NCBI GenBank assembly: GCA_963765635.1
Contig: CAVXXF010000002.1
Span: forward strand, 210,363 to 274,362
Direction of reading: 5' to 3'
DNA length: 64,000 bases
DNA from: an uncultured Thermoleophilia bacterium
Lineage (GTDB): Bacteria > Actinomycetota > Thermoleophilia > UBA2241
Each line of letters begins with the position of its first letter. Within the stretch, counting starts at the first letter, position 1. The notes under the pieces were generated by a model. That model was given only the letters and a program-made list of their open reading frames with translations. It did not search any database and was not told the DNA's origin. Position numbers and translations under genes: made by a program. Below are positions 6,250 to 48,285 of the stretch, in pieces.

Positions 6250-6300
6250 GGCCCGTCGCCGGCCAGCTGTACGCATTGACATCAGACTGAGGGAGGCGCC

Positions 6301-9400: not shown

Positions 9401-9473
9401 GGGGCGAGGGTATCATGGAGCCAGGAGATACCCACTCTGCCGCAGGCGACAGGCGGGAGGCGAAGTGAGGCCC

Positions 9474-25038: not shown

Positions 25039-27673
25039 ATGCAGCAAACGAAACGAAGGAGTAAGAAGGGCGTCATCCTTCTTGCGTTGACGATCGCCTT
25101 GCTGGTCTTGGCGTTCGTGCCGGCCGCGATGGCCGCCGGGCCGGGTTTCCTCACGGTGAACAACGGCGCCACCATCATCGGCGACACCACACGTCACGCT
25201 CCAGTTCAAGAGTGACGCTGTCGTTCTGGGCATCACTCAGTACACGATTCAGGACTCCAACGCAGGTGCTGGTCTCTTCGTTCCCCCGTCGCCGACCAAG
25301 GTGCCCTACGTCGCCGACGCGCTCATCGACATCGACTACACGATGGCGAGCACGGCGACCCCGGTCGTGGGCCAGTCCTTCACGGTGCGGGTGCGTTTCT
25401 ATGACGCCGGCAACAACGTCGTGGACACTTACGACCGCAACCGTGGTTTTCGACAATACCAAGACGGTCTCGGTGCTCGACTGGAACGGCTATGGCATCG
25501 CCGGCGACTACGGCACGACGCTGGTTCGGCGTACCGTCGCGCCTTCACGCCGGTCCGGGCCAATCTCTCCACCACCGGCGCTGCGCCTCACTCCATCGTC
25601 TGGAAGATCGACAGCGGCGCTTGGGCGGATCTTCTGTGCCCGCGGCTGTCGACCCGATCGACTTCGGTAGCATCTTCGCCGACGGCAAGCACACGATCGC
25701 AGCACTACGGTGTCGCAGCCGATACGCTGATCACTGACGGCGCAGTCACCTTCAGCGAGTTCGGCTGGGACATCGACTGCCTCCGACCGTGGACCTTCAG
25801 CAGAGGCCCCAGCACGACCAAGTGGTACGGCAACGCGCCGATCCCGTGGGCCGCGACGATCACTGACGACACCGGCTCGGGCGTGGCTCCGACGCCGCTC
25901 GTCAGCTATACCGACGCGGCGGCTCACTGGCGTTCGTGACGCCACCCCGCTGCCGTGGTCGATGTACCGCTATCAGGCCAGCGGCATCGTCCCGGTCGGC
26001 GCTGACGTGAATGTGCACCGCTGTCGACATGGTCGGCAATGGCGGCACCGATCTGGATACGCCTCTCAGGTGGGACCTCATCGCTCCTCATACCTCCTAC
26101 ACACTCGAACACCCAACTGCAAACGCAGACAGCATCGCGGGCTGGACCAACAAGGACGTCAAGGTGACGTTCCACGCGATGGACCCGGGCGCTCCCTTGA
26201 CGGGCTCCGGCGTGGCCTACACCGAGTACATCGAGGGTAACGCCACCTCGACCGCGCCTGCGTTCAGCGCGTCGGGCACCAAGCTCACAGTCGCTGCCGA
26301 TGGCACGTCTTCGATGACCGTCACCGAGACGGCTCCCACCGGCCCCCGCGTCGTCTGGTTCCGCTCGGTCGACAAGGCCGACCCGGCCAACAAAGAAGTC
26401 TGGCAGTCGGTCTATATCTTCATCGACAAGCTCGCCCCGACGTTCACAACCGACGCTCCGAGCTGGTGGATCAACGGCCCGACTGTCCAGATTTCTTGAT
26501 CTCCCTGACTGTGGAGGATCTGAACAGCGGCGTCCTCTCGCCTCCGGGCCTCGAGTACAAGGTCCCCGGCTGGCATGGAGCAATAGCCGACTGGACGGCC
26601 GGCACGTCCATCGCTCTCTCGGTGGACTATCTCGGCCACTTCACCGACGGGCTCTATGACTACATGTGGCGTGCCTCCGACTTGGCCGGCAACACGGGCG
26701 AGGGCAGCGGCAAGTTCGGTATCGACTCGCGTGCTCCCGTCACCGACGGCGCCGCGGGCTGGATCAACGGCACCAAGCCGTACGTCCTGACAGCGACCGA
26801 CCAGGTCATCGGCGCCGGTACTGCCGCGACGTCCTACCGCGTCGACCAGGCCACCCCATGGACCACTAACGTCGCCGGCACCGTGGCGACACAGCTCATG
26901 ACTGAGCTGCCGCTCTTCGCTCAGGTCCAGGGTGCTCTGCACACGATCGACTTCGCGTCCTTGGGACGCGGCGCTCCCGTACGGCTACACGCCCGTTACG
27001 GGCATTCCGAGCTGGCATTTCGGAAACTACGAAGGCCTGACGTTCGTGTGGGGCGGCATCAGTGAGCAGCGCATCACCACGATCACCGGCTACAAGACCC
27101 GCACCGTGCAGCTCGACATCACGGCTCCTGCGGTCACCGCCATGGATCCCAAGCTCGGCGAATGGCAGAAGGGCCCGGCCATCGTCAACTTCAGCGGCAC
27201 CGATGTTGGCTCCGGCTATGCCTACACCGAGTGGAAGACCAGCGGCTCCGACTGGACCAAGGGTGAGGTCGCCTCAGTCGGCGGCAACGGTGAGATCACC
27301 GTCACCTACCACGGCGTCGACAAGGTCGGCCTCGTGTCGGCCGACCAGACCATCATGGTCAAGGTCGCCTCGCACCCGTCCGAGCGTCACCGGCGGCAAC
27401 GTCACCGTCAAGAAGGGCCACAAGGCCACCATCCGCTTCAACGTCACTGCGGTCACGCCGACGGCCACCAGCGTCGTCATCGAGATCCGCAACAAGGCCA
27501 CTGGCAAGACGTACATCACCAAGCGTTATGCCAACGTGACCACGAATTCCGATCAGACCAGGTCCTTCAAGGTCAATCTCAAGAAGGGCAAGTACAACAT
27601 CCGCATCGGCGCCACCGATGCAGCCGGCAACGTGCAGGCCAAGAGGGGCGGCGGCACTCTGACGGTCAAGTAA
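25039..27673 (+). pseudogene. Secreted multi-Ig-like-domain surface protein, pseudogenized (at least 5 frameshifts/stops), paralog of the two downstream genes
   Basis: AGGAGG SD and signal peptide (MQQTKRRSKKGVILLALTIALLVLAFVPAAMAAGPG). Coding signal then continues through track ORFs 25212, 25301, 26011, 26466, 26932 and 27062 in changing frames. Repeated D-x-AGN motifs. C-terminal domain (...KGKYNIRIGATDAAGNVQAKRGGGTLTVK) homologous to the C-termini of 27918..29516 and 29679..31190. Confidence 0.7.
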
Positions 27674-32007: not shown

Positions 32008-33892
32008 TCAATGACAGACGCTAGGACTCACCACGTGCTGAAGAGAATCTGGGACTTCCTCAACGAGTTCCTGCGCATCAACGCCATACGGCGGATGCTC
32101 GCCATCGTCGACGTGACGAGCCGCAGAAGTCGGCGGGCTGGTCGGGTTTGCCGTCCTCTTCGCGATCTTCGAAGGTATCGGCCTCGCGCTGCTGCTGCCC
32201 ATCCTGCAGTACGCCGACGGCGGTCAGACGGCCATCTTCGACAGCTCGGGCATCGTCTGGCAGGCGATCGCGAAGTTCATGGACTTCTTCCACCTCCCAG
32301 TCACGCTGCCGGTGCTCCTGGTGCTCGCGTTCATCCCCATTCTGCTGCGGCAGGTGGTGTTCTACTTCAACGCCTGGTACTCAGCCGTGGTCTCCACCCG
32401 CATCGGCATGCGCCTGCGGATGCAGACCCTCGACACCATCCTCGACGCCGACCCCGAGTTCTTCTCGCGCCACTCCGTCGGACATCTCGTGGGCGTCGTC
32501 ATCACCCAGACGGCAGTGGGCGGCAGCGCGATCCTTGCCGTCATCAAGCAGCTCTCGATCGCGCTGCTCATGCTGGTCTACGTCGCGATACTGCTGGCGC
32601 TCTCGGTGCCGCTCACGCTCAGCATCCTGTTCTTCGCGGTCATGGTGTCGCTGGCAGTCCGCGCCAACATCAGGCGCATCCGCGAGTACGGTCTCGTGAC
32701 CGCTCGGGTCACGCAAGAGGTATGGAGCACGATCGTCGAGCGCTTCGGCATGATGCGCCTGATCAAGCTGCGCGACCAGAAGCAGCTCGAATCGAACCGG
32801 GTCCGGGGTCTTCTGGAAAGGCTCCGCGCGGTCGATGTGCGGCAGGCCCGCCTGGGAGCGAACATCGAGGTGACGGCCGACCCCCTGCTCATGCTCTCGG
32901 CGTTCGTGACGCTCTACATCGGCATCGCGGTGCTGGGCATGACCCTGCCCCAGCTCGGGCTGCTGCTCTTCGTGCTCAACCGGCTCAACGCCAAGGTGAA
33001 GGAGTTCAACGCCGGCCGTCAGGCGATCTCGCAGAATATGGCCGGATTGCTGCTCGTCAAGGACCTGACTGTCGAGGCTGCGGCCGCCAACACCATACGT
33101 CGCAGGTCGGCGCCCTTCGAGGGCCTTCGAGCGCGAGCTCGTGCTCGCCGACGTGACGTTCGAGTATCCGGACACGGACGCGCCTGACGGTACGGTGGTG
33201 TCCGCGGACCGCTCCGTGCTGAAGGGGATCTCCGTCGCGATCCCCGCGGGGTCGTTCACGGCAGTGGTCGGTCGCTCCGGTACCGGCAAGTCGACGCTGG
33301 TGGAGCTCCTCCCTCGCCTGCGGGAGGCCACGAGCGGCAGCATCACGTACGACGGCACGGACATCAAGCCGAATTCGACGTGGGTACCCTGCGCCGGGGC
33401 ATCGGCTATCTCACCCAGGACGCGATGCTGTTCAACGACACCGTCCGCGAGAACCTCGTCTACGGTCTTGGCTTCGAGCCGTCGGACGGGCAGATCCGTG
33501 ACGCCCTCGAAGGCGCTCACGCCGGCTTCGTCTACGACCTCCCGCAGGGGCTCGAGACCATGCTGGGCGATCGAGGAGTGCGGTTCTCGGGGGGTGAGCA
33601 ACAGCGCATCGCCCTCGCGCGCGTGCTTCTGGAAGACACGTCGATCGTGATCCTCGACGAGCCGACCAGTGCGCTGGACTCCGAGTCCGAGACATACATC
33701 CAGGACGCGCTCGCAAAGCTGCATGGGCACAAGACTCTCATCGTCATCGCGCACCGCCTCGCGACAGTCATCCAGGCGGACCAGCTGTTGGTCATCGAGG
33801 ACGGGCGCATCGTGGAGCGCGGGACGCACCAGGAACTCGTGGCTCGAGCGGGCGCGTACCAGCAGCTGTTTCAGAGCCAGCTGCTGGCGTAG
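32008..33892 (+). pseudogene. ABC exporter (fused TMD-NBD, MsbA/polysaccharide-exporter type) disrupted by at least three frameshifts
   Basis: TMD spread over track ORFs 32008 and 32279; NBD over 33141 (Walker A GRSGTGKST) and 33380 (signature FSGGEQQRIALAR, Walker B IVILDEPTSALD, H-loop IAHRL). Frame changes at ~32118-32124, at 33114-33133 (10-bp tandem duplication ccttcgaggg/ccttcgagcg; removing one unit restores ...RRRSAPFERELVLADVTFEYP) and at ~33368-33376. Confidence 0.75.
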
Positions 33893-33898: not shown

Positions 33899-35896
33899 CT
33901 ACGAGACGAGCTTCCGGTACAGGCGCAGGTAGCCGTCGACCATGCGCTCGACGGGGAACCGCTCCTCGACCCGGCGCGCGCCGGCAGCGGCGAGGGCGCG
34001 TGACAGTACGGGGTCGTCCAGAAGCCGGGCGACGGCACGGGCGAGCGCTGCCTCGTCGGCGGGATCGACGAGCAGACCGGTCGCTCCATCGACGACCACC
34101 TCAGGGAGGCCACCCACACGCGTGGCGACGACGGGCACGCCGAGCGCGAGCGCTTCCATCGCAGTCAGCCCCGAGGCCTCTGAGAGCGACGGGACGACCA
34201 CGACGTCGAGCGCCGCGAGCAGGGGTGGCACAGATTCCACGTAGCCGAGGAACTCGATACGGTCGGCCATGCCGAGTGCTGCGGCGAGTGCTCGCAGTTC
34301 GTCCTCGTCGGATCCGTGGCCCGCGACGACGAAGCGCACACCGGGATGGTCTGCGGCCAGGATCGCCGCGGCGCTGACGAAGTACTCAGCGCCCTTGATG
34401 CGCTCGAGGCGCCCGATGAAGCCGACGCGCGCACTCGCCTGGCGGAGTGCGACGGCACTCTCGCCCTCAGCGTCGCGCCTGAGCCGAGCGAGGTCGATAC
34501 CGTTGGGGATCACGGTGATCCTGCTCGCGGCGACCTTGTCTGCGACAAGTCCCGTCGCGACGGCCTGCGAGACCGCGACGAAGCGGGTGACGTAGCGTCG
34601 CGTCAACCGGTCGAGAGTCATGCGGAGGGCAGAAACGGCTGGCGCTTCCCCGTCTAGGCGCGCGGCACCAGGGACGACGTGGACCGTATTCACGACCGGC
34701 ATGCGGGCACGCGACCCCACCAGCCGCGCAATCAGGTTCGTCAAGTAGCCCGTCCCCTGGATGAGCTGACCGCCTCGCAGCCGGTCGGAGAGGAGGGTGA
34801 TGAGCGACGGCAGGCAGCGCAGCGTGAAGTCGACGGGGATGACGTCGACGCTCTCGAGATCGCGTGTCTCGCGTTCCAGCGCCGAGCCTGCCGCGCAAAC
34901 GACGCACGGCCTGACGTCCGCGGCCGACAACCCGCGCAGCAGGGCCAGAAGCTGCACTTCTCCGCCGCCGAGCGACGGCCCGGGGAAGTTGTTGATGAAG
35001 GCGACCGCGAGACCGCCGGTCACGGGGGCATGCTTGGCGGGCGCGCCCGCGCGCAGAGAACGGATACTCGCCGTGAGCCGTTCGAGAGCAGTCGGCCCAA
35101 CGGTCTTCGCGAGGATCTTCCTGACCGCGATGTTCCACTGCAGTCGCGTGGTGGAACGACGGGCCGCGGCGAGCTGGGAGTTGGAGAGCAGCCCGCTGCC
35201 CACGACCTCGGTGATGACGCGCAGGTCTGTCTCGCGCATGAGGAGGGCGTTCGCGGACTTCTGCACCGTGCCGCGCCGGTGGACGGACAGCGGTTGGGCG
35301 ATGTGCTGGTGCCTGAAGCCGTGGGCCAAGGCGAGCAGCCAGAACAGATAGTCCTCCGCGTAGATGCCTTCGCGGAAGCCGCCGACGGCATCGAAGACCT
35401 CGCGTCGGTACACCGCGCCGACGCCGTAGAAGCAGGCCGCGAGCAGCTCCTCAAGAACGCAGCCGGCGGGGTCCGCCCAGAGCGCTTGAGGTCGCGCCGT
35501 CTCCCGGCGGCCGTCCTCGTACTCGTACCATCCGTCGGACGTGAAGACCGAGGCCTCGGGGTTATCGCGGATGCAGGCGTCGAACGTGGCCAGATGATCG
35601 GGGAGCAACAGGTCGTCGGCCGAGAGCATCACCAGGAGGTCGCCGCGCGCGCTGGGTACCGCCGCGTTGTACGCGCCGCCGGAGCCGCGGTTCGCCTGGG
35701 ATACCACGTGGACGCGCGCATCCTCCCTGGCGAATCGCTCGGCGAGCCGAGCGTCGCCGTCCGTTGAGCCGTCGTCGACGATGACGAGCTCCCAGTCGGT
35801 GATGGTCTGCGCCTGTACCGACTCGATCGTCCCGGCCAGCGTGGCCTGGGCGTTGAATGCGGGGATCGTGACCGAGAAGCGCGGATTATCAGCCAT
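33899..35896 (-). CDS. Bifunctional glycosyltransferase: N-terminal GT2 fused to C-terminal GT4, intact copy A
   Basis: From MADNPRFSVTIPAFNAQATL...VIVDDGSTDG...SADDLL (GT2). GT4 part ...EASGLTAMEALALGVPVVATRVGGLPEVV. The track ORF begins 39 nt further upstream at an alternative start. Confidence 0.8.
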   Translation of the reverse strand: MADNPRFSVTIPAFNAQATLAGTIESVQAQTITDWELVIVDDGSTDGDARLAERFAREDARVHVVSQANRGSGGAYNAAVPSARGDLLVMLSADDLLLPDHLATFDACIRDNPEASVFTSDGWYEYEDGRRETARPQALWADPAGCVLEELLAACFYGVGAVYRREVFDAVGGFREGIYAEDYLFWLLALAHGFRHQHIAQPLSVHRRGTVQKSANALLMRETDLRVITEVVGSGLLSNSQLAAARRSTTRLQWNIAVRKILAKTVGPTALERLTASIRSLRAGAPAKHAPVTGGLAVAFINNFPGPSLGGGEVQLLALLRGLSAADVRPCVVCAAGSALERETRDLESVDVIPVDFTLRCLPSLITLLSDRLRGGQLIQGTGYLTNLIARLVGSRARMPVVNTVHVVPGAARLDGEAPAVSALRMTLDRLTRRYVTRFVAVSQAVATGLVADKVAASRITVIPNGIDLARLRRDAEGESAVALRQASARVGFIGRLERIKGAEYFVSAAAILAADHPGVRFVVAGHGSDEDELRALAAALGMADRIEFLGYVESVPPLLAALDVVVVPSLSEASGLTAMEALALGVPVVATRVGGLPEVVVDGATGLLVDPADEAALARAVARLLDDPVLSRALAAAGARRVEERFPVERMVDGYLRLYRKLVS

Positions 35897-38048
35897 CGAG
35901 GACCTCCCGGTAGACGTCGAGGATCTGCTCGGCAACCACGTCGGGTGCGAAGCGCGCTCTGCGCGTATCGGTGAAGCGCTCGCGGGTCGAACTCAGTGAA
36001 GTGGTCGAGCATCCAGTCGAGACCCTCCGCCAGCGCGTCGACGCTCATCGGCTCGACGAGCCGGCCGACCTCCGGGGTGACGAACTCCTCGGGCCCCCCG
36101 CAGCGCGTCGAGACCACCGGGCGGCCGCACATGAGTGACTCCGCTGCCGATACCGAGAAGGTCTCGTGCGTGCTGCTCACAACGGTGAACGCCGATTCCG
36201 CGAGAATCTCGGCGGACCTCCTCGGCGGACATCGCGGCCGGTGAACTCGACCACGTCGGCTGAGCCCAGCGAGACGGCGATCGCTTCGGCTCGGCGCTGC
36301 GACTCCCCGTCGCCCACGAGCCTGAGCCGGAAGTCAGTCCGCCGTCCCGCAGAGTCTTCACCGCCTGTAGCAGGCCGGGAGGTTCTTTGCGGGCCCCATG
36401 ACCGAGATATGCGCGATCGTGGACGTCGGCCGAGACGGCATCGGCGCGGGCTCTGACACCGGCACCACGTTGGGGATGACGACGGGATCCACGGCGAGGC
36501 CGGAGCTCCACGAGCCGGTCGGCCAGAAAGCGGCTCACCGCGATGGTGCGCGATGCGTCTCGCGCGAGTGGCCTGTAGCAGCGATGGGCACGACGCCCGG
36601 GTACCTGACGAGCTTGCGCTCGCTGGCGGCCAGATACTCCTCGGAGTGCTCGGTGACCACGTACGGGATGCCGTAGCGGCGCTTGATGGCTCGCGCGATG
36701 AGCCCGGCGGGCCACAGCGCCTGGACGTGGACGATGTCTGGGGTGCCCCAGGCGTCGCGCAGGGCGTCGAATGCGGCCAGGGCGGTGCGCCTGTATGTCA
36801 CCAGCCATCCGTAGCGTCCGGCGGACCCGGCACTGACGCGGACCACGACGGCCCCCCCCTCTCCCTCCACCGTTGCAGGAAGCGACGTCTTGCTTGGATC
36901 CAGGTGGAGGACCGCAACGTCCCCCCTCCGCGCGAGGGCGTGCACCTGCTGCTGGATGAATACCCCAGCTGTAGGGTTGCCGGCGCTCGGGAACCAGCTG
37001 GGGACGACCAGGATGCTCAACGCTCGCTCCACACCGCCGACGGCGTCGGTCGGTGGCGTCGACGCGCAAAGGCGATGCATCCTTGTCTCCAGCGACTTGC
37101 GAGCTTTGCTCTCGGCGATCAGCCGACGGATGGGCCTGAAGAGCCAGGTCACTCTGTGCGCGGCGGCAAGGATCTCTCGAGCTGCGCGCTTCCCGAGATA
37201 CCGCTCGAGCGACTCTCTGAGGCGATCGGCCTGGCGAGCGAGCTCCTGCTCCTGCGCCACCGTCACCACTTGACGACGCTTGGCATCAAGCGCCGCCTCC
37301 ACTCTGGAGGCCATCTGCGGAGTGAGCGGGCACTCCTGCAGGAGGGCGGCAAGAGACACGACGAGCGCCTCCGCGCCAGCAAGCGCGTCTTCGCTGCGCC
37401 GTCCGGCCCTGTCTTGCCTGTAGTTGTACAGCGGGGTAGGCAGATACAGCGCCTTGGCTCCCTGTGCCGTTGCTCTCAACCAGAAGTCGTAGTCTTCGCA
37501 GTGAATGCCTGACCGGAAGCCTCCGAGCTTCTGGTAGCGGTCGCGGCTGACCATCGCGCCGCCCACGGCGATGACGCACTCCGTAAGGAGGTCGATCAGG
37601 CCAAACGAAGTCACCACGGTAGAAGCGCTGAACAGCGACTCCCGACCGTTGCGCGCCTACGACCTTGAGGTTGGGGTGGTAGATGTCGTGGCCTGGGTGG
37701 CCGCGTATGAATGCGTCCATCGCACGAAGGTAGTCCGGGTGCAGCTCATCGTCGGCATCGAGAAAGCCCACGTAGTCCCGTGGCGCACAACCCGACACCG
37801 GTGTTGCGCCCTTGGGCGACGCCGTGGTTCTCTTGTCTAGCCACGACGATCCGTGGGTCAGTCGCCGCGTACCGTGTGGCGATGGCCTCAGTGCCGTCAG
37901 TCGATCCGTCGTCGACGACGACAAGGCTCCAGTCGGGGAGGCTCTGGGCGCGCACCGACTCAATGGCCGCGCCGATTGTCGCCTCGGCGTTGAATGCCGA
38001 CATCACGATCGAGTATGCGCGATCCGCGCGTGTCTTGACGGTGCCCAC
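35889..38048 (-). pseudogene. GT2-GT4 bifunctional glycosyltransferase paralog, copy B, shattered by at least 5 frame changes
   Basis: Homologous pieces in five different minus-strand frames: GT2 N-terminus (ORF 37746..38048: YSIVMSAFNAEATIGAAIESV...VVVDDGSTDG); GT2 middle (37286..37963: DYVGFLDADDELHPDYL); GT2 C-terminus plus GT4 N-terminus (36535..37617: ...CEDYDFWLRA...ILVVPSWFPS...); GT4 middle (35993..37069 frame); GT4 C-terminus (35629..36180: SAAESLMCGRPVVSTRCGGPEEF). The true C-terminal RFAPDVVAEQILDVYREVLDG* (own translation) mirrors copy A's RFPVERMVDGYLRLYRKLVS*. Confidence 0.7.
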
Positions 38049-38959
38049 GGCCAGGCTACTTCCGGGCTCCGCGGCCGCTCACGGATCTCACTGCGCGAGA
38101 GACGCCGGGCTCTCCGCTCGCCAAGCAGACGAAGTGCGAGTGTCAACGCAGCGCTGCGCAGGCGGCCTGGGGTGGACCGTGGAGACGGGTCGAGCTGAGC
38201 TATCAGGCGCTGCCGCTCCAGAACACACTCGTCGACGGCGCGGCGATCCTCAGCGGAGAGCGCGAAATCCCGCCGCAAGTCGGTCACCAGACGGATGTCA
38301 GACCGATACGCGGTCTCCAGACTCGCCGACTTCTGAGTCGCGCTCACCCTGTGCAGCGATAGAGGCTCAGGCAGGTAGCGGTGCCGCGCCCCCGAGGCCA
38401 TGGCGCGAAGCCAGAAGTCGTAGTCCTCTCCGAACACGTCTGAGCGGTAGCCGCCGACCGTTGCGAACAGCTCCCGGCGGTACACGGCGCCGACGCTGTA
38501 GAAGCACAGACGGATCACGTCGCCGAGTTCAAGGGAGTGGACCTCGTCTCGCTTTCCCGGAATGTAGACGAGCTTCCGAGAATCGCCCGGACTCCAGAAG
38601 TATCCGTTCGTCGAGTAGATGTCGTAGCCGCTCTCTCGCGTGATGAAGTCGTGCATCTTGGAGAGGTGCTCTGGCAACAGGATGTCATCCGCCGAGCAGA
38701 GAACGATGAAGTCACCGGCAGCGGCCACGACGCCTGAGTTGTAGGCGCCGGCAGAACCCCGATTGTCCTGGTGGACGATCCGTATGCGGGGGTCTTGCTT
38801 AGCGTATGTCGACGCGATTCGAAAGGTCCCGTCCGTGGAGCCGTCATCCACAACGACACATTCCCAGTCGCCAACCGACTGGGCCGTGATCGCTTCAAGC
38901 GTTGCGGCGAGCGTCGCCTCGGCATTGTAGGCGGGCACGATAATCGAGAAGAGAGGCAC
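38003..38959 (-). CDS. GT2-family glycosyltransferase, intact copy C
   Basis: MPLFSIIVPAYNAEATLAATLEAITAQSVGDWECVVVDDGSTDG...CSADDILLPEHL...GEDYDFWLRA. DxD motif and family pattern; 318 aa. Confidence 0.8.
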   Translation of the reverse strand: MPLFSIIVPAYNAEATLAATLEAITAQSVGDWECVVVDDGSTDGTFRIASTYAKQDPRIRIVHQDNRGSAGAYNSGVVAAAGDFIVLCSADDILLPEHLSKMHDFITRESGYDIYSTNGYFWSPGDSRKLVYIPGKRDEVHSLELGDVIRLCFYSVGAVYRRELFATVGGYRSDVFGEDYDFWLRAMASGARHRYLPEPLSLHRVSATQKSASLETAYRSDIRLVTDLRRDFALSAEDRRAVDECVLERQRLIAQLDPSPRSTPGRLRSAALTLALRLLGERRARRLSRSEIRERPRSPEVAWPWAPSRHARIAHTRS

Positions 38960-39334: not shown

Positions 39335-40222
39335 CTACGACCGGCCCGAGACTGCAGCATCTGAGTGCTCCCGCGCCAGTTGCTCGAGCATCTCGTCCCA
39401 GTTCGGCGGAGTCCACCCCGTGCGCTCGCGGAAACGCGTGCTGTCGAGCGAGCGGTCGATGAGCGGCTCGTCCGCCGCGATGAGGTCCACGTCCCACCCG
39501 AGGTAGCCGGCGAGTCTGGCGAGCAGCGTGTACTTGTCGACAGGGTCCGCGGATACGTGCCAGAGGCCGCACAGGCTCTCGTCCGGCAGGATCACGTCGC
39601 GGATGAGGACGGTGAGCGCCTGCGTGGTCAAGCCGCTGAACACGGCTTTCGCGAAACCCGTGAGCGCCTCGGTGCGGTGGGCGGCGAACCAGCCCACCAG
39701 CCCGGTGGGTGCGCCGAGCTGCCAGCCGACGATGGACGTGCGAAGGGTGACGACGTGGTCGCGGTCGATGACCTCACCCAGCAGCTTCGAGCGGCCGTAG
39801 AGGTCGAAGGCGTCGGGCGCATCGTCCTCGGTGTAGCTTCCTCGCGCGCCGCTGAACACGCAGTCGGTGCTCACGTGCACCATGCGGGCACCATGAGCGG
39901 CGCAGGCGTCCGCGAGCACGTGCGGCCAGAGGCTGTTGACCGTGATGGAGGGGATGGCGGCCTTGGCGGCGGCGAGCTGCTTGACGATGCCGACGGCGTT
40001 GAGCACGAGGTCGGGCTTCACGCGCTCGACGAGAGCGTGTGCCGAAGTGCCATCGGTGGCGTCGAGACCGCCGAGCATTCGCTCGGCGGGTACGCCCAGG
40101 TCAGAGAGCGCTTCGGGATCGCGGCACGCACCCCACACCTTGAAGTCCGCGGCCAGTACGCGGATGGCCTCGTGGCCCAGCATCCCGCTGGCGCCGATCA
40201 CCAGGATGCGGGGTGCGCTCAC
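39335..40222 (-). CDS. RmlD/FnlB(Cap5F)-like NAD(P)-dependent sugar-nucleotide reductase
   Basis: MSAPRILVIGASGMLGHEAIRVL. SDR Rossmann fold. YxxxK in the ...DLYGRSKLLGE context. Confidence 0.75.
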   Translation of the reverse strand: MSAPRILVIGASGMLGHEAIRVLAADFKVWGACRDPEALSDLGVPAERMLGGLDATDGTSAHALVERVKPDLVLNAVGIVKQLAAAKAAIPSITVNSLWPHVLADACAAHGARMVHVSTDCVFSGARGSYTEDDAPDAFDLYGRSKLLGEVIDRDHVVTLRTSIVGWQLGAPTGLVGWFAAHRTEALTGFAKAVFSGLTTQALTVLIRDVILPDESLCGLWHVSADPVDKYTLLARLAGYLGWDVDLIAADEPLIDRSLDSTRFRERTGWTPPNWDEMLEQLAREHSDAAVSGRS

Positions 40223-41295
40223 GCGAGTCCCAGTACGATCCTCGCGACGACGTCGGAGACGTTCTCAGCGAGGTACTCGGCCGGCGGGTTCCACGTGCCG
40301 GCGGAGCGGACGGCGAGGTCGATCGCCGGCAGAATGCGCTCAGCCTCGACGCCGGCCAGCAGGTTGCTGCCGCACTCGATGGTCTCGGGCCGCTCTGTGA
40401 CATCGCGCATCGTGACCGTGGGCACACCGAAGATGCAGCATTCTTCCTGCACTGTTCCGCTGTCGGAGAGTACGCAGAACGCTTCCTTCTCGAGGCGCAC
40501 GAAATCAAAAAGCCCAAGAGGCGGGACGAAGCCGATCTTGCCGGCCTCCATGCCGAACTGCTGCATCTTGTCGGCCGTGCGTGGGTGCAACGAGGCCAGA
40601 ATCGGCAGGTCGTACTTCGCGATCGTCCGGTTGAGCGCCTCGATCAGGGCCGCGAGTCGCTCGGGATCGTCCACGGTCTCGGCGCGATGGGCGGTGACCA
40701 GGAAGTACTTGCCCGGCTCCACGCCGAACGTTGTGAAAGGGTCGGCCGCGTCGATCTGTGGGGCGTAGTGGTCCAGCACTTCCTTGATGGGGTTGCCGGT
40801 GACGTAGATTCTCCGGCGTTCGATGCCCTCGCGCACGAGATTCTCGGCGCTCCGATGCGTGTACGGCATCAGGACGGTGCTGGAATGGTCGATGACGCGG
40901 CGGTTGACCTCTTCCGGTACGCGGTCGTCATAGCAGCGGTTGCCGGCCTCCATGTGACAGACGCGGATGCCCATGCGCTTGGCCACGAATGCGGCGAGGC
41001 CGGTGTTGGTGTCGCCGAGGATGAGGACTGTGTCGGGGCTCTCCGCGCGGAAGAGCTCTTCGCATCTGGCGAGTATCTGCCCGATCTGATCGGCGAACCC
41101 CGCACCGCGCACGCCCATGAAGAGGCCGGGCTCACGCAGCCCGAGATCGCGGAAGAACATGCCGCTCAGCCGGTCGTCGTAGTTCTGGCCGGTGTGGACG
41201 AGCAGGTGCTCGCACGAAGCATCAAAGACTGGAATCACTCGCGAGAGACGGATGATCTCGGGCCGCGTGCCCAGCAGCGTGATGACCTTGGCCAC
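40219..41295 (-). CDS. UDP-N-acetylglucosamine 2-epimerase (non-hydrolysing; FnlC/Cap5G-like)
   Basis: MAKVITLLGTRPEIIRLSRVI...HTGQNYD...VLILGDTNT...HMEAGNRC. Classic WecB-family motifs. Confidence 0.85.
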   Translation of the reverse strand: MAKVITLLGTRPEIIRLSRVIPVFDASCEHLLVHTGQNYDDRLSGMFFRDLGLREPGLFMGVRGAGFADQIGQILARCEELFRAESPDTVLILGDTNTGLAAFVAKRMGIRVCHMEAGNRCYDDRVPEEVNRRVIDHSSTVLMPYTHRSAENLVREGIERRRIYVTGNPIKEVLDHYAPQIDAADPFTTFGVEPGKYFLVTAHRAETVDDPERLAALIEALNRTIAKYDLPILASLHPRTADKMQQFGMEAGKIGFVPPLGLFDFVRLEKEAFCVLSDSGTVQEECCIFGVPTVTMRDVTERPETIECGSNLLAGVEAERILPAIDLAVRSAGTWNPPAEYLAENVSDVVARIVLGLA

Positions 41296-41296
41296 G

Positions 41297-42352
41297 TTAC
41301 GCCTCCAGGTAGCGCTCGCCGAGGACCTCGGGGACCTTACTTGCGAGGAAGCCGGCGAGCTCCTCGGTGCTCATCAGCGCGTTCGCCGAACCGTAGTCGC
41401 CGACGAGCGCCGGCTCGTCGACCGGACCAGCCAGCTCGGGGAGCATGGGGCGAAGCGCGAAGTAGCCCTCCTGCCCGTGGATGGTGCGGGTGGCTTCTTC
41501 TTCGGAGAGCAGGATCTCGTGGATCTTCTCTCCGGGGCGGATACCGGTGACGACCATCTCGATGTCGCGGTCGCCGATGAGGTAGGCGGCGAGGTCGGTC
41601 ATCCTGGCGCTTGGGCAGCGCGGGATGTAAGTCTCACCGGCTGCCCCGGATCGCACCGCCGCGAAGATCGTGTCTACAGCGTCCTCGAGCGTCAAGAGGA
41701 AGCGCGTCATGTCTGAGGTCGTGATGGTGACCGGGCCGCCGGCGGCGATCTGATCGAGGAACAGCGGCACCACGGAGCCGCGCGAGGCCAGCACATTGCC
41801 GTATCGCGCGCAGATGAAGCGCGTCTGCGGGCAATGGATGTTGCCGTCGATGTAGACGCGCTCCTGGATGGCCTTGGTCATGCCCATGACATTGACCGGC
41901 TTGCACGCCTTGTCGGTGGAGATGCCAACGACGGTCTCGACCGGCAGATGCGACTCCGCGATGGCTCGCACGAGATTCACGGCGCCTTCGACGTTCGTGC
42001 GGCAGGCCTCCCATGGGTAGTACTCGCAGCTCGGGACCTGCTTGAGGGCCGCCGCGGCGAAGACGATGTCGGCCTTCTCGGCGGCGCGAACGACACTCGC
42101 GTAGTCACGCACGTCCCCGATCATGAACTTCAGCCGCTGTCTGCTGTTCTCGAAGATGACTTCGTCGGTGGCGGCGCTCTGGTTCATGAAATCCAGACGC
42201 ATGTAGTGCTGCTTGGCTTCGTCCCGCGAGAAGACGGTGACGCTCTCAGGGACGCCCTCGGCGCCGGTCATCAGACGACGCGTGAGCACCTGCCCGAGCG
42301 AGCCGGTGCCTCCTGTGATGAGGATGCGTTTGCCTTCGAACATGCCTGCCAT
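41297..42352 (-). CDS. UDP-GlcNAc 4,6-dehydratase/epimerase (FnlA/CapD/Cap5E-like short polysaccharide-biosynthesis protein)
   Basis: KRILITGGTGSLGQVLTRRL...FMIGDVRD...GMTKAIQE. Extended-SDR pattern of the CapD subfamily. Confidence 0.8.
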   Translation of the reverse strand: MAGMFEGKRILITGGTGSLGQVLTRRLMTGAEGVPESVTVFSRDEAKQHYMRLDFMNQSAATDEVIFENSRQRLKFMIGDVRDYASVVRAAEKADIVFAAAALKQVPSCEYYPWEACRTNVEGAVNLVRAIAESHLPVETVVGISTDKACKPVNVMGMTKAIQERVYIDGNIHCPQTRFICARYGNVLASRGSVVPLFLDQIAAGGPVTITTSDMTRFLLTLEDAVDTIFAAVRSGAAGETYIPRCPSARMTDLAAYLIGDRDIEMVVTGIRPGEKIHEILLSEEEATRTIHGQEGYFALRPMLPELAGPVDEPALVGDYGSANALMSTEELAGFLASKVPEVLGERYLEA

Positions 42353-42832
42353 CGTCGATACCCCTGTCCGATTCGCTGCTGGGCGCCCCGCAATTCGAGC
42401 GGCTTCTGCATTCTAGACCATGTGGACCAGCCCGACGCCTGAGTGCGTAGTCTGGCGCGGGACGCGGTGCGAGTGCCGGGCCTTGCCGAGGAGGCCGCCC
42501 GCGACCTGGTGCGCGCCCGTGAGGACGCCTGCGGCGACCTGATGGGCGCGCGGCACTGGCGGCGGCACTGTTCCGCGGAGCATTGCAGCTTCGGGCCGGG
42601 CTACCTGGCGCCCCCTGAGTAGACCATCAAACGTCTCCGGCAAACGTCCACCTTGTCGCACGCTCGCGAGATGCTACTCTGGGATAGCACGCCGAAGATG
42701 CCTCCTTGCTTGCCACCAAGACCTCCGCCCCGAGGCGCTCATGGCGGTCACCGGCAAGCAGCGCATAGGGTAGATGGGCGGTCCATCAGCGGTGACTCGC
42801 TGTACTGACGTCAATCGGAAAGGAGATCCTCG

Positions 42833-43439: not shown

Positions 43440-44637
43440 ATGAAGCTGCCCTCCCACCCGCTGCGCGTCACGATGGTCAACAAGTACTACTCGCCGCCGC
43501 ACCTTGGCGGTGTGGAGATCAGTCGTGCGCACCCTGTCCGAGGGCCTCGTGGAGCATGCCGGGGCGCGGGTGCGCGCGCTGGTGAGCAACGAGGGCCGCG
43601 AGCGCCTGGAGGAGAGCATCGGCGGCGTGGACGTGGTGCGCCTGCCGCGGCAGCTGGCGCTGTCGTCGGCGCCGGTGGCCGCAGGCATGCCCGGCGCGCT
43701 GCGCGACGAGATGCGACACGCGGGACCCGACGGCCCGGAGCCGCCCGACGTCGTCAACCTGCACTCTCCGTACCCGTGGGGCGAGCTGTCGTTTCTGCAG
43801 GCGAGCCCAGACGTACCCAGCGTCGTGCTGTACCACAGCGACATCGTGCGCCAGAAGCGCCTGCTCGCCGCCTACCGGCCCTTTCTGGAACGGTTTCTCG
43901 ATAGAGTCGACCTCATCGTGACGTCGTCGCCCAACATGGTCAGGAGCTCGCCGTTTCTCGCGCCGCGCGCCGAGAAGTGCCGCGTGGTGCCGTTCGGCCT
44001 GCCGGCGGCGCGTCTGGCAGCCACGCCCGCCGTTCTGCGGCGCGCCGCGGAGCTGCGCGCCGCCCATGCCGGGCGCAAGGTCGTGCTCTTCGTCGGCCGG
44101 CTCGTGTACTACAAGGGCGTCGATGTGCTCGTGCGCGCCATGGCACAAGTCGATGCTGACCTCGTGCTGATCGGCCGCGGCCCGCTCGAGGCAGAGCTGC
44201 GCGAGCTCGCCTCCGCCGCCGGTATCGCCTCGCGCGTGACCTTCCTCGCCCCGCAGGGCGACGAGGAGCTCTCCGCCTGGTACCACGCCGCCGACGTCTT
44301 CTGCCTGCCCAGCGTGGCCCGTAGCGAGGCGTTCGGCCTTGTGCAGATCGAGGCGCACGCCGCCGGCACGCCGGTGGTGTCCACCGACGTGCCCACCGGC
44401 GTCCCGTACGCCAATCCCGACGGCGTCACCGGGTTCACGGTGCCGCCCGGTGATGCGCTGGCGCTGGGCGCGGCGCTGATCCGCCTGCTCGGCGACGACG
44501 AGCTGCGCGCGCGCCTCGGCGGCCAGGCGCAGGCGCGCGCGCAGCGCGTGTTCACGGTCCCGCGCATGGTCGCCGGTACGCTCGAGGTGTATGCCGAGGC
44601 GGCCGGGCGGCACGCGGCCAGGCGCGGCAGAGCGTAG
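43440..44637 (+). CDS. GT4-family glycosyltransferase with an apparent 1-nt frameshift at ~43521
   Basis: N-terminus MKLPSHPLRVTMVNKYYSPPHLGGVEI is in the frame of ORF 43422. The rest (VVRTLSEGLVEHAGARV...GLVQIEAHAAGTPVVSTDV) is in the frame of ORF 43504. Deleting one base at gagatcAgtcgtg gives the canonical ...GGVEIVVRTL... Confidence 0.7.
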
Positions 44638-46011
44638 ATGTCGCGCAACCGCTTCATCGCGCTTTCCATCGCTGTCGATGCCGTGCTCGTCAACGTCGGT
44701 TTCGTGCTTGCCTTCTTGGTGCGCTTCGAGGGCCGGCTGCCGGCGTTCAACTTCCAGGCCTACCTCTTCCTCGCGCCGCTGCTCACGGTGCTCTACATCG
44801 GCGGCGCCTGGACATACGGTCTCTACGATCCCGAGCGCGCCGATACCGCCTGGGCGGTGGTCCGCGGCGCCGTGGCGGCGGTGACGGTCGGCACGCTGCT
44901 CACCGCCGCGATCGCCTTCTTCGGCGGCGCGCGCACGGCCTCGTTCGCGCGCTCCACCATTCTGCTCGCCTGGGTCATCGACCTCGTGCTGCTCACGGGC
45001 TGGCGGCTCGCCTTCCTGCGCCTGGCACGCGTGAGCTGGCCGGAGCAGCGCGTGCTCATCGTCGGCACCGGCACGGCGTCGGTGGAGCTCGCCCAGAAGG
45101 TGTCGCAGCGCGACCGCTGGGGCTGGACGGTGACCGGCCTCATCGACGCGAGCACCGATCCCGGCCATACGCGGCCGGCCGAGGTCGGCGGCTTCCCCGT
45201 TCTCGGCGGCGCTCACGACGTGGCGCGCATCGCCGGCGAGCACCATGCCAACCGCGTTATCGTCGTCAGCCCGATCGCTCTGCGCGAGCTCGTCGAGTCG
45301 CTGGTGCTCGCCGACGAGGCGAACGTGCGCGTCGACGTAGTGCCCGAGCTCTACGAGATCTTCATCGGCACGGTGGACGCCATCGTCGGCGACGTGCCGC
45401 TCATGGAGATCACGCACGCCAGCGTGCCGCGCTACTACGCCGCCGCCAAGCGCACGATCGATGTGCTGGTCGCCCTCGTCGGTCTTGTCGTGACCAGCCC
45501 ACTTCTGCTGGCGGCGGTCATCGCCATCGCCATCGACGACGGCTTCCCGGCGCTCTTCTCCCAGGAGCGCGTCGGCCGGAGGATGAAGCCGTTCCGCATG
45601 CACAAGCTGCGCACCATGGTCAAGGACGCCGAAGGCGACAGCGGGCCGGTGCTCGCCGCGGAGAACGACGCGCGCGTCACGGCCGCCGGCCGCGTGCTGC
45701 GCAAGTACCGCATCGACGAGATCCCCCAGTTCGTCAACATCATCAAGGGTGAGATGAGCTTCGTGGGTCCGCGCCCCGAGCGCGCCTACTTCGTTGAGCA
45801 GTACAGCCTCGAGACGCCGGGCTACCGCGAGCGCTTCAACGTCAAGCCGGGAGTCACCGGCTTGGCCCAGGTCAGCGGCGGCTACGCGACTACGCCTGAG
45901 CGCAAGCTCAAGTACGACCTCATCTACATGTATCATCAGACCCTGGCCATGGACGCACAGATCGTGGCCGAGACCCTGCGCGTGGTGCTCACCGGGCGCG
46001 GAGCCAGATAG
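44638..46011 (+). CDS. Polyprenyl-phosphate sugar phosphotransferase (WbaP/WcaJ/EpsL 'sugar transferase' family); priming glycosyltransferase
   Basis: 457 aa. N-terminal TM helices. C-terminal ...IDEIPQFVNIIKGEMSFVGPRPERAYFV...KPGVTGLAQVSG is the bacterial sugar-transferase signature. ATGA overlap with the upstream GT4. Confidence 0.85.
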   Translation: MSRNRFIALSIAVDAVLVNVGFVLAFLVRFEGRLPAFNFQAYLFLAPLLTVLYIGGAWTYGLYDPERADTAWAVVRGAVAAVTVGTLLTAAIAFFGGARTASFARSTILLAWVIDLVLLTGWRLAFLRLARVSWPEQRVLIVGTGTASVELAQKVSQRDRWGWTVTGLIDASTDPGHTRPAEVGGFPVLGGAHDVARIAGEHHANRVIVVSPIALRELVESLVLADEANVRVDVVPELYEIFIGTVDAIVGDVPLMEITHASVPRYYAAAKRTIDVLVALVGLVVTSPLLLAAVIAIAIDDGFPALFSQERVGRRMKPFRMHKLRTMVKDAEGDSGPVLAAENDARVTAAGRVLRKYRIDEIPQFVNIIKGEMSFVGPRPERAYFVEQYSLETPGYRERFNVKPGVTGLAQVSGGYATTPERKLKYDLIYMYHQTLAMDAQIVAETLRVVLTGRGAR

Positions 46012-46023
46012 GGGAGCAGGCGC

Positions 46024-48285
46024 TTGGCCAAGGCCGATCAGAACCGCCGCGCCGCGCGGCGTCAGGCGGAGCGCAAGCAGGCCGCCGGCAAGAAGGCCGC
46101 CGGCAAGCAGCCGCCGTCTGAGCAGCCGCCGGCCAAGCGACAGTCGGCCAAGCAGGTCGCCGGTGCGCCGGCGCCCAAGCCGGCGGCGCGCGCGGCCGCG
46201 CCTGCGGAGGCTTCCGCCGAGTCCATGAGCGTCGCCCGCCGGGTCTCCTGGTGGGCGCTGCTGGCCATGGTGTTCCTCGTCCCCATCGCCTTCAGCAACC
46301 TCACCTTCCTCGGCTTCCAGACTCCCTTCACCTTCGACGCCTTCGACATCGTCAAGGTGTCTCTCGAGCGCGTGCTGGGGCTCGTCGCGCTGGGCGCCTG
46401 GGCCTGGGACATGCTACGCAAGGGCGGCCGCATACGGCGCACGCCGGTGGACTGGCTCATCCTCGCCTTCCTCGCTTGGGTGGCGCTCACCACGGTGACG
46501 TCCATCCACTGGCCCACGGCGCTGTTCGGCAAGCCGCGGCGCTATGAGGGGCTGCTCTCTTTCGTCAACTACGCCGTCATCTACTTCCTCGTCCTGCAGT
46601 TCGCCGATCACGCGCCACGAGTCCGGCGCCTCGCGCAGTCCCTGTTCTGGGCGAGTGTGATCGTGGCCGGCTACGGCCTTCTGCAGTTCGCCGGCCTGGA
46701 GTTCGTCAGCTGGGGCACCCTCCCGTTTGAGACCAACCGCGCCTTCTCCACCTACGGCAACCCCGATCTGCTCGGTGGCTTCCTGATCTTCTCGGTCACG
46801 GTCGCCCTCGGGCTCGCACTCCTCGAGCAGCGACTTGCGTGGCGCCTGGTGTACTGGGTGGGCTTCGGCCTCAACGGATTGGCGCTGATCGTCGCCTTCA
46901 CGCGCGGCGCCTGGATCGGCGGCGCCGTCAGCCTCGTCCTTCTAGGCGTCATCGCCTGGCGGCAACGCGCCACAATGCGCCGCATCGACTGGGCACCCGC
47001 CGGAGTCTCCATCGCCGTCGGCGCCGCCGTCATCTGGCGCAGCCTCTCCAGCCCCAACGAGGTCATGAACTTCGGCAAGCGCCTGGCCTCGATCTTCCAG
47101 TTCAGCGGCGGCAGCGGGCAGACGCGCACCGAGATCTGGCAGGCGGCCATCGCGGCCATCAAGGAGCGCCCGGTCCTCGGCTACGGCGCCGACACCTTCC
47201 GTCTTGTATTCCCCACGTTCAAGCCGGTCGAGTACGTGCGCGACGCCGGCGGCTCGTCGGTGGCCGACAACGTGCACGACTATCCGCTGCAGCTGGCCGC
47301 CGGCATCGGCATCCCCGGCATGCTCCTGTTCTACGGCATCTTCGTCTGGGCCGGGGTGCGGTCCTTCAGCACCGTGTTCCGGCGCTCGAGCGACCCCACG
47401 CGCCTCATCCTGGGGGCGTTCTGGGCCGCCGCGGTGGGCTACCTTGTGCAGCTGCTCTTCGGCATCTCGGTCACTGGCAACACGTTTCTGCTATGGATCG
47501 CGCTGGCGGTCGTGCTCGTGCCGACCGCGCGGTGCGTCGAGGTGAAGGCTCTCCGCTGGGGCACCGCGGCCGGCGTGATCGTCCTCGCAACCGTCGCGCT
47601 GGCCATTGGCTACCAGGGGGTATTCGTTCTGGCGGACAACGCCTACCTGCAGGCGCAAACGGCGCCGTCGCTGGCCGACCGCACCGCAGCGGCGGTTCGG
47701 GCGGTCAAGCTCAACTCGCTCAATCCGACCTATCGGGGCGCCGTGGGCTTTGCCTACCTCGATGAAGTCCGCGCCGCCCTGCAGGCCGGCGCTCAGGCGC
47801 AGCAGAACGGCGAGGACACAGCCCCGTATGCGGAGGCGGTCAAGCGGAGCTTCGCGAACGCGGAGACCGCGCTCAAGGATGCCATCGCCTTCGCTCCCGA
47901 CGAGTACGACAACTACGTGACCCTGGCCGACCTCTACAACGTCGGCGGCGGAGCCCTGACCGAGGACCTCTACCAGAGCGCCATCGAGGTCGCCGAGCAA
48001 GCGCTCGAGGTGGCGCCCTTCGGCACCGCGATCCGCGTGCAGTTGGCGCGATCACTGCTCGCCGTCGGCAAGACCGCCGAGGCCGTGAAGACGCTGGAGT
48101 ACGTGGTGCGCATCGACCCGACCGGCGGTCAGGCGGCGCTCATGCTGGCGGACGTCTATCAGCAGCAGGGGAAGCCGGCCAAGGCGCTCGCCGTGTTGAA
48201 GTCGCTGGAGGCGATCGCTCCCGGCCAGCCCGGCATCGCCGAGGCCATCCAGCAGCTCGAAGCGAGCGTCACGCCGGCTCCATAG
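46024..48285 (+). CDS. Wzy/O-antigen ligase-like polytopic membrane protein with Lys/Ala/Pro-rich N-terminal tail and C-terminal TPR domain
   Basis: 753 aa. ~67-aa low-complexity N-terminus (KADQNRRAARRQAERKQAAGKKAAGKQPP...), ~10 TM helices with a large loop (O-antigen ligase/Wzy-like), then TPR-like helical repeats at the C-terminus. Confidence 0.7.
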   Translation: MAKADQNRRAARRQAERKQAAGKKAAGKQPPSEQPPAKRQSAKQVAGAPAPKPAARAAAPAEASAESMSVARRVSWWALLAMVFLVPIAFSNLTFLGFQTPFTFDAFDIVKVSLERVLGLVALGAWAWDMLRKGGRIRRTPVDWLILAFLAWVALTTVTSIHWPTALFGKPRRYEGLLSFVNYAVIYFLVLQFADHAPRVRRLAQSLFWASVIVAGYGLLQFAGLEFVSWGTLPFETNRAFSTYGNPDLLGGFLIFSVTVALGLALLEQRLAWRLVYWVGFGLNGLALIVAFTRGAWIGGAVSLVLLGVIAWRQRATMRRIDWAPAGVSIAVGAAVIWRSLSSPNEVMNFGKRLASIFQFSGGSGQTRTEIWQAAIAAIKERPVLGYGADTFRLVFPTFKPVEYVRDAGGSSVADNVHDYPLQLAAGIGIPGMLLFYGIFVWAGVRSFSTVFRRSSDPTRLILGAFWAAAVGYLVQLLFGISVTGNTFLLWIALAVVLVPTARCVEVKALRWGTAAGVIVLATVALAIGYQGVFVLADNAYLQAQTAPSLADRTAAAVRAVKLNSLNPTYRGAVGFAYLDEVRAALQAGAQAQQNGEDTAPYAEAVKRSFANAETALKDAIAFAPDEYDNYVTLADLYNVGGGALTEDLYQSAIEVAEQALEVAPFGTAIRVQLARSLLAVGKTAEAVKTLEYVVRIDPTGGQAALMLADVYQQQGKPAKALAVLKSLEAIAPGQPGIAEAIQQLEASVTPAP

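Follow-up and report, generated by a model that had tools for sequence, protein, structure and literature searches.

WbdA is a multi-domain transferase of ABC-transporter-dependent O-antigen pathways, and the chondroitin polymerase K4CP (PDB 2z86) carries two catalytic domains on one chain. When bacterial genes decay, the resulting pseudogenes are deletion-biased, and substitutions accumulate in them far beyond indels. Frameshifts are also a concern in metagenome-assembled genomes (MAGs) built from long reads: L012 and L021, two MAGs related to the DNA studied here, come from a Nanopore-only catalogue assembled with Flye and one round of Medaka, for which the authors checked Nanopore-associated errors (PMC12313526). 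Here, we analyzed 64,000 nucleotides of an uncultured actinobacterium, referred to as the window, in which the middle one (B) of three adjacent glycosyltransferase genes is broken by frameshifts. These frameshifts are probably consensus errors of a long-read metagenome assembly and not mutations in the organism, where B would encode an intact GT2-GT4 enzyme of about 715 amino acids. The three genes are arranged as follows:

Gene C, 38003..38959, minus strand: stand-alone GT2 glycosyltransferase, 318 aa as read; Pfam PF00535 positions 1-164 of 168, E 2e-33.
Gene B, 35889..38048, minus strand: GT2 domain, linker of about 110 aa and GT4 in one fusion; GTG start at 38048, TGA at 35891-35889.
Gene A, 33899..35896, minus strand: intact GT2-GT4 fusion, 665 aa from the ATG; Pfam GT2, GT4 N-domain and Glycos_transf_1.

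An earlier note on this DNA had described three consecutive minus-strand genes with shared GT2 N-termini, C as GT2 only and A and B as GT2 fused to GT4, and Pfam searches of C, A and corrected B bore out its genes, coordinates and domains. PF00535 scored 99.7 bits in A, 116 in C and 106.9 in corrected B, against a curated cut-off of 23.3. As read, the pieces of the GT2 domain, the GT4 N-domain and Glycos_transf_1 of B are scattered over different frames. In the corrected protein, GT2 spans residues 13-117 and is followed by Glyco_transf_4 (PF13439, 361-529) and Glycos_transf_1 (PF00534, 546-678), so that both Rossmann-like halves of GT4 lie in order on one chain, as they do in A (PF13439 310-471, PF00534 489-640). 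The translations contain predicted acidic DxD-type metal/nucleotide-binding motifs, namely VVDDGSTD and LDADD in B and VDDGSTD and SADD in A and C, and an E-x7-E motif can be read, from the sequence alone, in the C-terminal half of GT4 (ETFSVSAAE in B, EASGLTAME in A). The C-terminus of B, RFAPDVVAEQILDVYREVLDG followed by the stop codon, is present and conserved, as the earlier note had pointed out, and the stop indeed overlaps the start of A: the junction ATGGCTGA is an 8-nt overlap, with the ATG of A at 35896-35894 and the TGA of B at 35891-35889. Gene A contains a single, compensated pair of private indels (35758/35748). In C, a three-way alignment revealed a window-private 2-nt deletion at ~38103, which puts the final ~15 codons out of frame; relatives terminate at the position of the window's TAG at 38058-38056. 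All three glycosyltransferase genes are long-established and non-redundant; together they encode five transferase domains and belong to a cell-surface polysaccharide cluster.

Frameshift-aware protein-to-DNA alignment divided B into nine in-frame segments separated by eight net frameshifts, at ~37778, 37651, 36582, 36502, 36378, 36349, 36236 and 35955; the earlier reading, by which B could be followed only by hopping between at least five frames, thus understated the damage. Behind these frameshifts are 15 window-private indels, all of 1-2 nt (nine insertions, six deletions). After frame correction, the gene comprises 715 codons encoding a 715-aa product and contains no stops. A majority-rule consensus of the window and its two closest relatives (L001 and L002) also gave an open "B" ORF, of 729 codons, which was rejected as proof of an intact ancestor because ~270 codons of its translation are in the wrong frame and only the high GC content keeps it open. 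For the same reason, consensus-based codon-position counts are invalid for the middle of B, and the frameshift-aware alignment was used instead.

The earlier note had further regarded the three N-termini as near-identical and the locus as a record of recent duplication of a bifunctional glycosyltransferase; our comparisons contradict both views. The shared FSI-VPAYNAEAT is a generic N-terminal motif of GT2, and the A and B proteins are 38% identical across GT2 and 35% in part of GT4, while their linkers and GT4 N-domains do not permit any alignment. At the nucleotide level, A, B and C resemble one another only in patches of ~47-129 nt at 65-77% identity, including one 129-nt patch of B that matches A at 74%. 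Ortholog comparison, one of the checks that the note had proposed, showed that the order C-B-A, with B as a single intact ORF, is found in a scaffold-named groundwater MAG (L010, 56%), a closed 2.5-Mb chromosome (L011, 54%) and a JGI contig (L031, 73%). Orthologs of C are 74% identical in L031 and 63% in L011. The ortholog of A is a fusion in L011, L012 and L031 but is split in L003, L013 and L019, and many relatives encode the GT2 and GT4 parts by separate genes. The epimerase-sharing contigs L004-L009 contain no ortholog of B and have a different transferase set. Given the low identity of A and B and their separate orthologs, in the same order, in relatives down to 54%, these genes are not recent duplicates. 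Since the linkers and GT4 N-domains cannot be aligned, A and B appear to have arisen by separate fusions rather than by duplication of one fused gene.

These comparisons also bear on the possibility that B was garbled by collapse or mis-polishing between recently duplicated paralogs, which is suggested by the tandem arrangement of three genes whose GT2 N-terminal motifs are similar and by the 129-nt patch shared with A. We consider this very improbable, because the divergence among A, B and C is much too great for the copies to collapse or for reads to be mis-mapped: short patches of 65-77% and partial protein identities of 35-38% are far below the level that confuses long or short reads. Furthermore, most frameshifts of B fall within its GT4 half, for which no nucleotide similarity to A was detected; corrected B is a full-length, clean ortholog of the B genes of L031, L010 and L011 and not an A-C chimera; and no paralogous DNA was found within the window for the other broken genes. 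Of the proposed mis-assembly or polishing error in a paralogous repeat, the artifact thus stands as the best explanation, but paralogy as its cause does not.

The window contains further broken genes, together with intact members of the same cluster:

guaB3-type IMP-dehydrogenase-related housekeeping gene, 5091..6250, plus strand: one frameshift near 6141.
Ig-like (Big_13) secreted surface protein of ~872 aa, 25039..27673, plus strand: 13 frameshifts, 10 of them single extra bases.
ABC exporter, a fused ABC_membrane and ABC_tran half-transporter convergent with A, 32011..33892, plus strand: three frameshifts at ~32116, 33128 and 33369.
RmlD-like reductase (Pfam), 39335-40222, minus strand: intact.
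UDP-GlcNAc 2-epimerase family gene (Pfam), 40219-41295, minus strand: intact.
Polysacc_synt_2 dehydratase (Pfam), 41297-42352, minus strand: one private deletion at 41341, near the 3' end.
GT4 gene (Pfam), 43504-44637, plus strand: in a divergent operon of the same cluster.
Bac_transf phosphoglycosyl transferase (Pfam), 44638-46011, plus strand: in the divergent operon.
Wzy_C and TPR protein (Pfam), 46024-48285, plus strand: in the divergent operon.

The surface protein was segmented by a codon-usage Viterbi procedure, used in place of a GC-phase strand track that was too noisy; most of the frame switches flagged by this procedure proved to be ordinary gene boundaries and not lesions. Its joined translation matches intact proteins of 872-880 aa at 69% identity over 100% coverage, and frameshift-aware alignment to P0112 gave 13 frameshifts, no stops and 72% identity. 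Two other Big_13 genes between the indel clusters are intact. The frameshifts of the ABC exporter, with four private indels, were mapped on the intact 616-aa ortholog of L003, and the ABC_tran profile (1-137) continues across the 33368/33369 junction. In guaB3, the last ~19 conserved residues sit in another frame, and the TIGR01304 match grows from 1-346 of 365 (500 bits) as read to 1-365 of 365 (516 bits) after frame correction. The sugar-nucleotide trio upstream of C (39335..42352) aligns to L012 without gaps over 3043 nt, the gene order of the divergent operon (43504..48285) is identical in L003, and an Rfam scan of 24-49 kb gave no match. Unrelated genes of the same contig are therefore hit in the same way as B (13 frameshifts in the surface protein, three in the ABC exporter, one each in guaB3 and at the 3' end of C), which supports an artifact and contradicts the idea that the damage is selective to the middle copy.

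A similar picture emerged from the two closest relatives, L001 and L002, which are 91% identical to the window and have Flye-style contig_N names. Their B genes contain 12 and eight frameshifts, respectively, at other positions and with none in common with the window, so that an ancestral pseudogene common to the relatives was ruled out. Three-way comparison over 10.5 kb identified 111 indel events, 109 of which are not multiples of three. The window has 24 private events, L001 48 and L002 39, with insertion-to-deletion ratios of 14:10, 44:4 and 29:10, respectively. Damage of this kind falls on different genes in the two relatives, clustering in A in L001 and in C in L002. The classic Nanopore homopolymer signature is absent, since only seven of the 24 private window indels extend a homopolymer and only one of these extends a run of three or more; a homopolymer error model was ruled out on these grounds, and a uniform error model by the strong clustering, which places ~24 of ~27 net window frameshifts in three genes totaling ~6.7 kb. 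The concentration of indels in few genes and their mostly non-homopolymer nature are unexplained under a consensus-error reading. Because the indels are clustered and lie mostly outside homopolymers, local strain heterogeneity or a local drop in coverage would be needed. Judging from its length of 1.25 Mb and from the related Nanopore-only MAGs, the contig itself is probably a long-read-only assembly; a second assembly of the same species was sought and not found.

The errors may concentrate at sites of difference between co-existing strains. One specific mechanism that the artifact reading would allow is a contig consensus that forms a mosaic of two or more co-existing strain alleles at hypervariable surface genes, with indels at the places of merging. 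Between 35956 and 36955, the private substitution rate of the window reaches 11.5-15.7%, compared with a background of 2.4-6.4%, and in all three assemblies private substitution rates are locally raised where the indels cluster. Synonymous divergence between the window and L002 rises from 0.09 in the GT2 part of B to 0.33-0.61 in the GT4 part with a dN/dS of ~0.3 throughout, which points to a real divergent allele. In addition, the gene content of the polysaccharide cluster is variable among relatives. On the other hand, gene A and the two Big_13 genes between the clusters are intact, and we put the mosaic forward tentatively, as a quite possible source of the errors.

Gene B is under purifying selection. 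Compared with its two closest orthologs, it has a dN/dS of 0.23-0.34 in all four segments, and this range also covers codons 491-605, where five of the eight frameshifts are located. Window-private substitutions at the three codon positions number 56/48/111 in B, similar to the 25/17/51 in intact A, and relaxed selection was not found in B by either measure. Moreover, among 133 columns without variation in 14 homologs, corrected B retains 128; intact orthologs deviate at 0-9 of these columns, and three of the five deviating columns of B adjoin frameshift sites. Consequently, a genuine, recently inactivated pseudogene, as implied by the earlier suggestion that the middle duplicate had selectively decayed, is unlikely. 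In its favor, the frameshifts are present in the sequence, the lesions are unevenly spread and cluster in three cell-envelope genes, and most indels are not homopolymer changes. Window-derived replacements, polarized with L031, are also somewhat enriched in the most broken segment of B (17 of 114 sites in codons 491-605), where several of them fall in short out-of-frame stretches between unresolved indel pairs. However, one disabling mutation suffices to inactivate a gene, and 8-13 per gene imply a long neutral decay that is not seen in the substitutions: a rough decomposition of the counts leaves room for at most ~34 neutral-phase substitutions in B against 15 indels. The absence of stops in the corrected frame, the small size of all indels, the excess of insertions over deletions and the lack of larger deletions likewise argue against decay, as do the frameshift in the housekeeping gene guaB3 and the damage to different genes in the closest relatives, none of which share the lesions of B.

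If the frameshifts were nevertheless real, B, the polysaccharide ABC exporter and the large Ig-like protein would have been inactivated in this lineage recently and simultaneously by many small indels that spared the remainder of the cluster, a scenario that we regard as quite improbable. Such a pattern would point to a genuine loss of function in surface glycans or glycoproteins, phage or immune-like pressure being one conceivable driver, and it would indicate either that a surface glycoconjugate was abandoned in a coordinated manner or that an unusual mutational process generates indels locally at surface genes.

The main import of the consensus-error reading is one of quality control. Annotation of this contig would yield B as four to six fragment proteins, with the surface protein and the ABC exporter fragmented as well, and one 360-aa fragment of B is already in public protein collections. 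Such fragments should not be taken for pseudogenes, gene loss or novel short ORFs. Indel errors in long-read MAGs can cluster locally in variable surface genes and need not be homopolymeric, and simple checks that rely on homopolymers or on mean coding density would overlook them. Biologically, what remains is modest: uncultured Coriobacteriia-related actinobacteria have a conserved C-B-A transferase module, in which some lineages fuse the GT2 and GT4 halves and others keep them apart. Based on the domain families, C, B and A would lengthen a lipid-linked sugar chain that the Bac_transf enzyme initiates. One of their substrates would probably be a 6-deoxy-L-HexNAc-type sugar supplied by the adjacent dehydratase, epimerase and reductase trio, and the neighboring ABC exporter and Wzy_C protein would probably take over the product.

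Among known bifunctional transferases, B and A share with K4CP the presence of two catalytic domains on one chain, and like such enzymes they lie in a polysaccharide cluster next to an ABC exporter. The GT2 domain of B matches a GT2 domain of K4CP (E 1.5e-19), and for its GT4 half a match to MshA, a GT4 enzyme, was obtained (7qsg; E 2e-13). K4CP, however, contains two GT2 domains, whereas B and A combine a GT2 of the GT-A fold with a GT4 of the GT-B fold; furthermore, their halves are separate genes in many relatives. With pseudogenes of reductive decay, B has in common multiple frameshifts in one gene with intact neighbors, but it differs from them in the absence of relaxed selection, stops, lost invariant residues, larger deletions and shared lesions. 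Finally, the locus departs from the consensus errors of Flye and Medaka type MAGs in that its indels are clustered in few genes and lie mostly outside homopolymers, but it resembles them in its dense 1-2 nt indels that are not multiples of three, in the insertion bias of the related contig_N assemblies, in positions private to each assembly, and in several unrelated genes being hit that become readable after correction and are under purifying selection.

ORF listing and Pfam scans bore out the earlier note in finding three consecutive minus-strand glycosyltransferase genes, here called A, B, and C. Pieces of GT2, GT4 N-domain, and Glycos_transf_1 lie in different frames between A and C (Pfam). 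These genes and the other broken genes of the window are as follows:

38003-38959, minus strand: C, 318 aa, GT2 only (ORF listing and Pfam)
35889-38048, minus strand: B, broken GT2 and GT4 gene
33899-35896, minus strand: A, 665 aa from its ATG, unbroken fusion of GT2 and GT4 (Glyco_transf_4 and Glycos_transf_1; ORF listing and Pfam)
32011-33892, plus strand: ABC exporter, convergent with A, three frameshifts (~32116, 33128, 33369) against the intact 616-aa orthologue of the related locus L003
25039-27673, plus strand: Big_13 Ig-like secreted surface protein, a single ~872-aa protein with 13 frameshifts
5091-6250, plus strand: guaB3-type housekeeping gene, one frameshift near 6141

Frameshift-aware protein-to-DNA alignment, which used a hybrid of the orthologue P0002 and the homologue P0087 as reference, placed eight net frameshifts in B (at ~37778, 37651, 36582, 36502, 36378, 36349, 36236, and 35955), between a GTG start at 38048 and a TGA stop at 35891-35889. 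The overlap of this stop with the ATG of A (35896-35894) is real and lies in the octamer ATGGCTGA. Once frame-corrected, B encodes 715 aa with zero stop codons and full-length matches to GT2, Glyco_transf_4, and Glycos_transf_1 (Pfam). In C, a 2-nt deletion at 38103 that is private, i.e. present in only one of the compared sequences, alters the final ~15 codons. The shattered copy is real as sequence, but the meaning attached to it, selective decay and recent duplication, is not upheld; it is probably an artefact of assembly.

B is not a special case among the window genes. Codon-usage Viterbi segmentation located further broken regions, among them the Big_13 gene, which is stop-free once frame-corrected and has intact homologues of 872-880 aa elsewhere (69% identity, 100% coverage). 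Two intact genes downstream of it (27918-29516 and 29589-31190) have weak, sub-threshold Big_13 matches, the second also a TIG domain. In the ABC exporter, the ABC_tran profile runs continuously over one frameshift junction. A window-private 10-nt insertion at ~33904 parts the stop codons of this gene and A, which abut or overlap in the related loci L001 and L002. One correction extends the TIGR01304 match of guaB3 from 1-346/365 to 1-365/365, the final 19 profile positions being encoded in another frame.

L001 and L002, taken from ENA assemblies with Flye-style contig names (contig_N), are syntenic with the window at 91% identity across >10 kb. Their three-way alignment with the window contains 111 indel events, 109 of them not multiples of three; 24 are private to the window, 48 to L001 (insertions to deletions 44:4), and 39 to L002 (29:10). 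Both loci likewise carry a broken B, with 12 frameshifts in L001 and 8 in L002, and in the frameshift-aware alignment none of these is common to the window and either locus, their positions being different. Other genes are damaged there instead: in L001, A and the ABC gene; in L002, C and the dehydratase.

Frame-corrected codon alignment of window B with its orthologues gave dN/dS values of 0.23-0.34 in all four segments, the most damaged included, and the L001–L002 comparison gave 0.14-0.29. Window-private substitutions at codon positions 1/2/3 number 56/48/111 in B and 25/17/51 in the intact gene A. Window B departs from 5 of the 133 columns invariant across 14 homologues, three of these changes adjoining frameshift sites, and intact orthologues depart from 0-9. 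Bacterial pseudogenes are generally deletion-biased and carry ~10 substitutions per indel. The 15 private indels of B are all of 1-2 nt (nine insertions, six deletions), and modelling its private substitutions as a 1:1:1 neutral class plus a class with the codon-position shape of A left room for only ~34 neutral-type substitutions, a rough estimate from a two-class fit. This indel spectrum argues against decay. Given also the lack of stops, the dN/dS values, and the like breakage of other window genes, selective decay of B fails as an explanation, and a genuine pseudogene is unlikely.

Some features sit poorly with a simple error model. The lesions are clustered, with ~24 of the ~27 net frameshifts of the window in B, the Big_13 gene, and the ABC exporter, and 3 kb of sugar-nucleotide genes align with the related locus L012 without a single gap. 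Homopolymer extension accounts for only 7 of the 24 window-private indels, and in all three assemblies indel clusters coincide with locally higher private substitution rates. Between window B and L002, synonymous divergence is 0.09 in the GT2 part (36950-38048) and climbs to 0.33-0.61 in the GT4 part (35889-36950), with dN/dS ~0.3 on both sides. The GT4 part looks like a real divergent allele, and this mosaic divergence at steady dN/dS suggests allele replacement by recombination in that half. Within the assembly-artefact reading, we infer that consensus quality would suffer at sites of variation between co-existing strains or of falling coverage. L012 and L021, two related MAGs, are part of a Nanopore-only catalogue (Flye assembly, a single Medaka polishing round) whose authors looked for Nanopore-associated errors in it (PMC12313526); the 1.25-Mb contig of the window is consistent with such an origin. 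In L001 (5691-7826) and L002 (5697-7235), indels yield artificial fusions as well as splits, such as a 711-aa "dehydratase-epimerase" in L001. Public protein collections therefore hold chimeric and truncated products of these loci, e.g. P0002, P0003, P0005, and P0023, which contain out-of-frame tails or internal stretches.

The earlier note had also given the triplet near-identical GT2 N-termini and read the locus as a record of recent duplication of a bifunctional glycosyltransferase. Pairwise blastn of A, B, and C found nothing beyond 47-129-nt patches at 65-77% identity, which leaves collapse of paralogues in assembly, conceivable for adjacent related genes, a very remote explanation of the broken B. 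By BLASTP, A and B share 38% identity in the GT2 domain and 35% across 154 residues of the GT4 C-domain, with no alignment of their linkers or GT4 N-domains. The same C-B-A order is present in L031 (a JGI contig; identities of 74% for C, 73% for B, and 77% for A) and L011 (closed 2.5-Mb chromosome OW818687.1; 63%, 54%, and 44%), and L010 has a B orthologue (56%) flanked by C and A. Recent duplication is contradicted by these values. Since distant relatives hold their own orthologue of each gene in the same order, the arrangement is old. The unalignable linkers and GT4 N-domains point to separate origins of the A and B fusions from adjacent gene pairs, rather than duplication of a single fused gene. 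Many other Coriobacteriia-type MAGs encode the GT2 and GT4 halves as separate neighbouring genes: L019 has five separate genes, and in L003 A is divided into 284 and 355 aa overlapping by 4 nt. Across Coriobacteriia-type genomes, the halves of both A and B are fused in some (L010, L011, L031, L012) and separate, often with 4-nt overlaps, in others (L003, L013-L021, L019), which is repeated fusion or fission inside one conserved gene order.

The three genes belong to a polysaccharide cluster (~32.0-48.3 kb; Pfam) comprising:

ABC half-transporter
Transferase genes A, B, and C
Polysacc_synt_2 dehydratase, Epimerase_2 2-epimerase, and RmlD-like reductase
Divergent operon of GT4, Bac_transf phosphoglycosyl transferase, and a Wzy_C + TPR protein

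Between its two divergent operons lies a ~985-bp segment (42417-43400) of lower GC (0.61), missing from the same intergenic site in L001 and L002, with a toxin–antitoxin pair (Unstab_antitox 42833-43060, ParE toxin 43057-43347). Outside the cluster, three small gene pairs (7984-8573, 9413-10005, and 31208-31823) have translations that resemble nucleotidyltransferase + HEPN pairs, judging by eye and by motifs only. The cluster content fits a predicted role in making a lipid-linked heteropolysaccharide or oligosaccharide with a 6-deoxy-L-HexNAc-type sugar, for which C, B, and A would, from their domain families, account for as many as five transfer steps. Among solved structures, the closest in sequence are those of the GT4 enzyme MshA and of the GT2 domain in the chondroitin polymerase K4CP.
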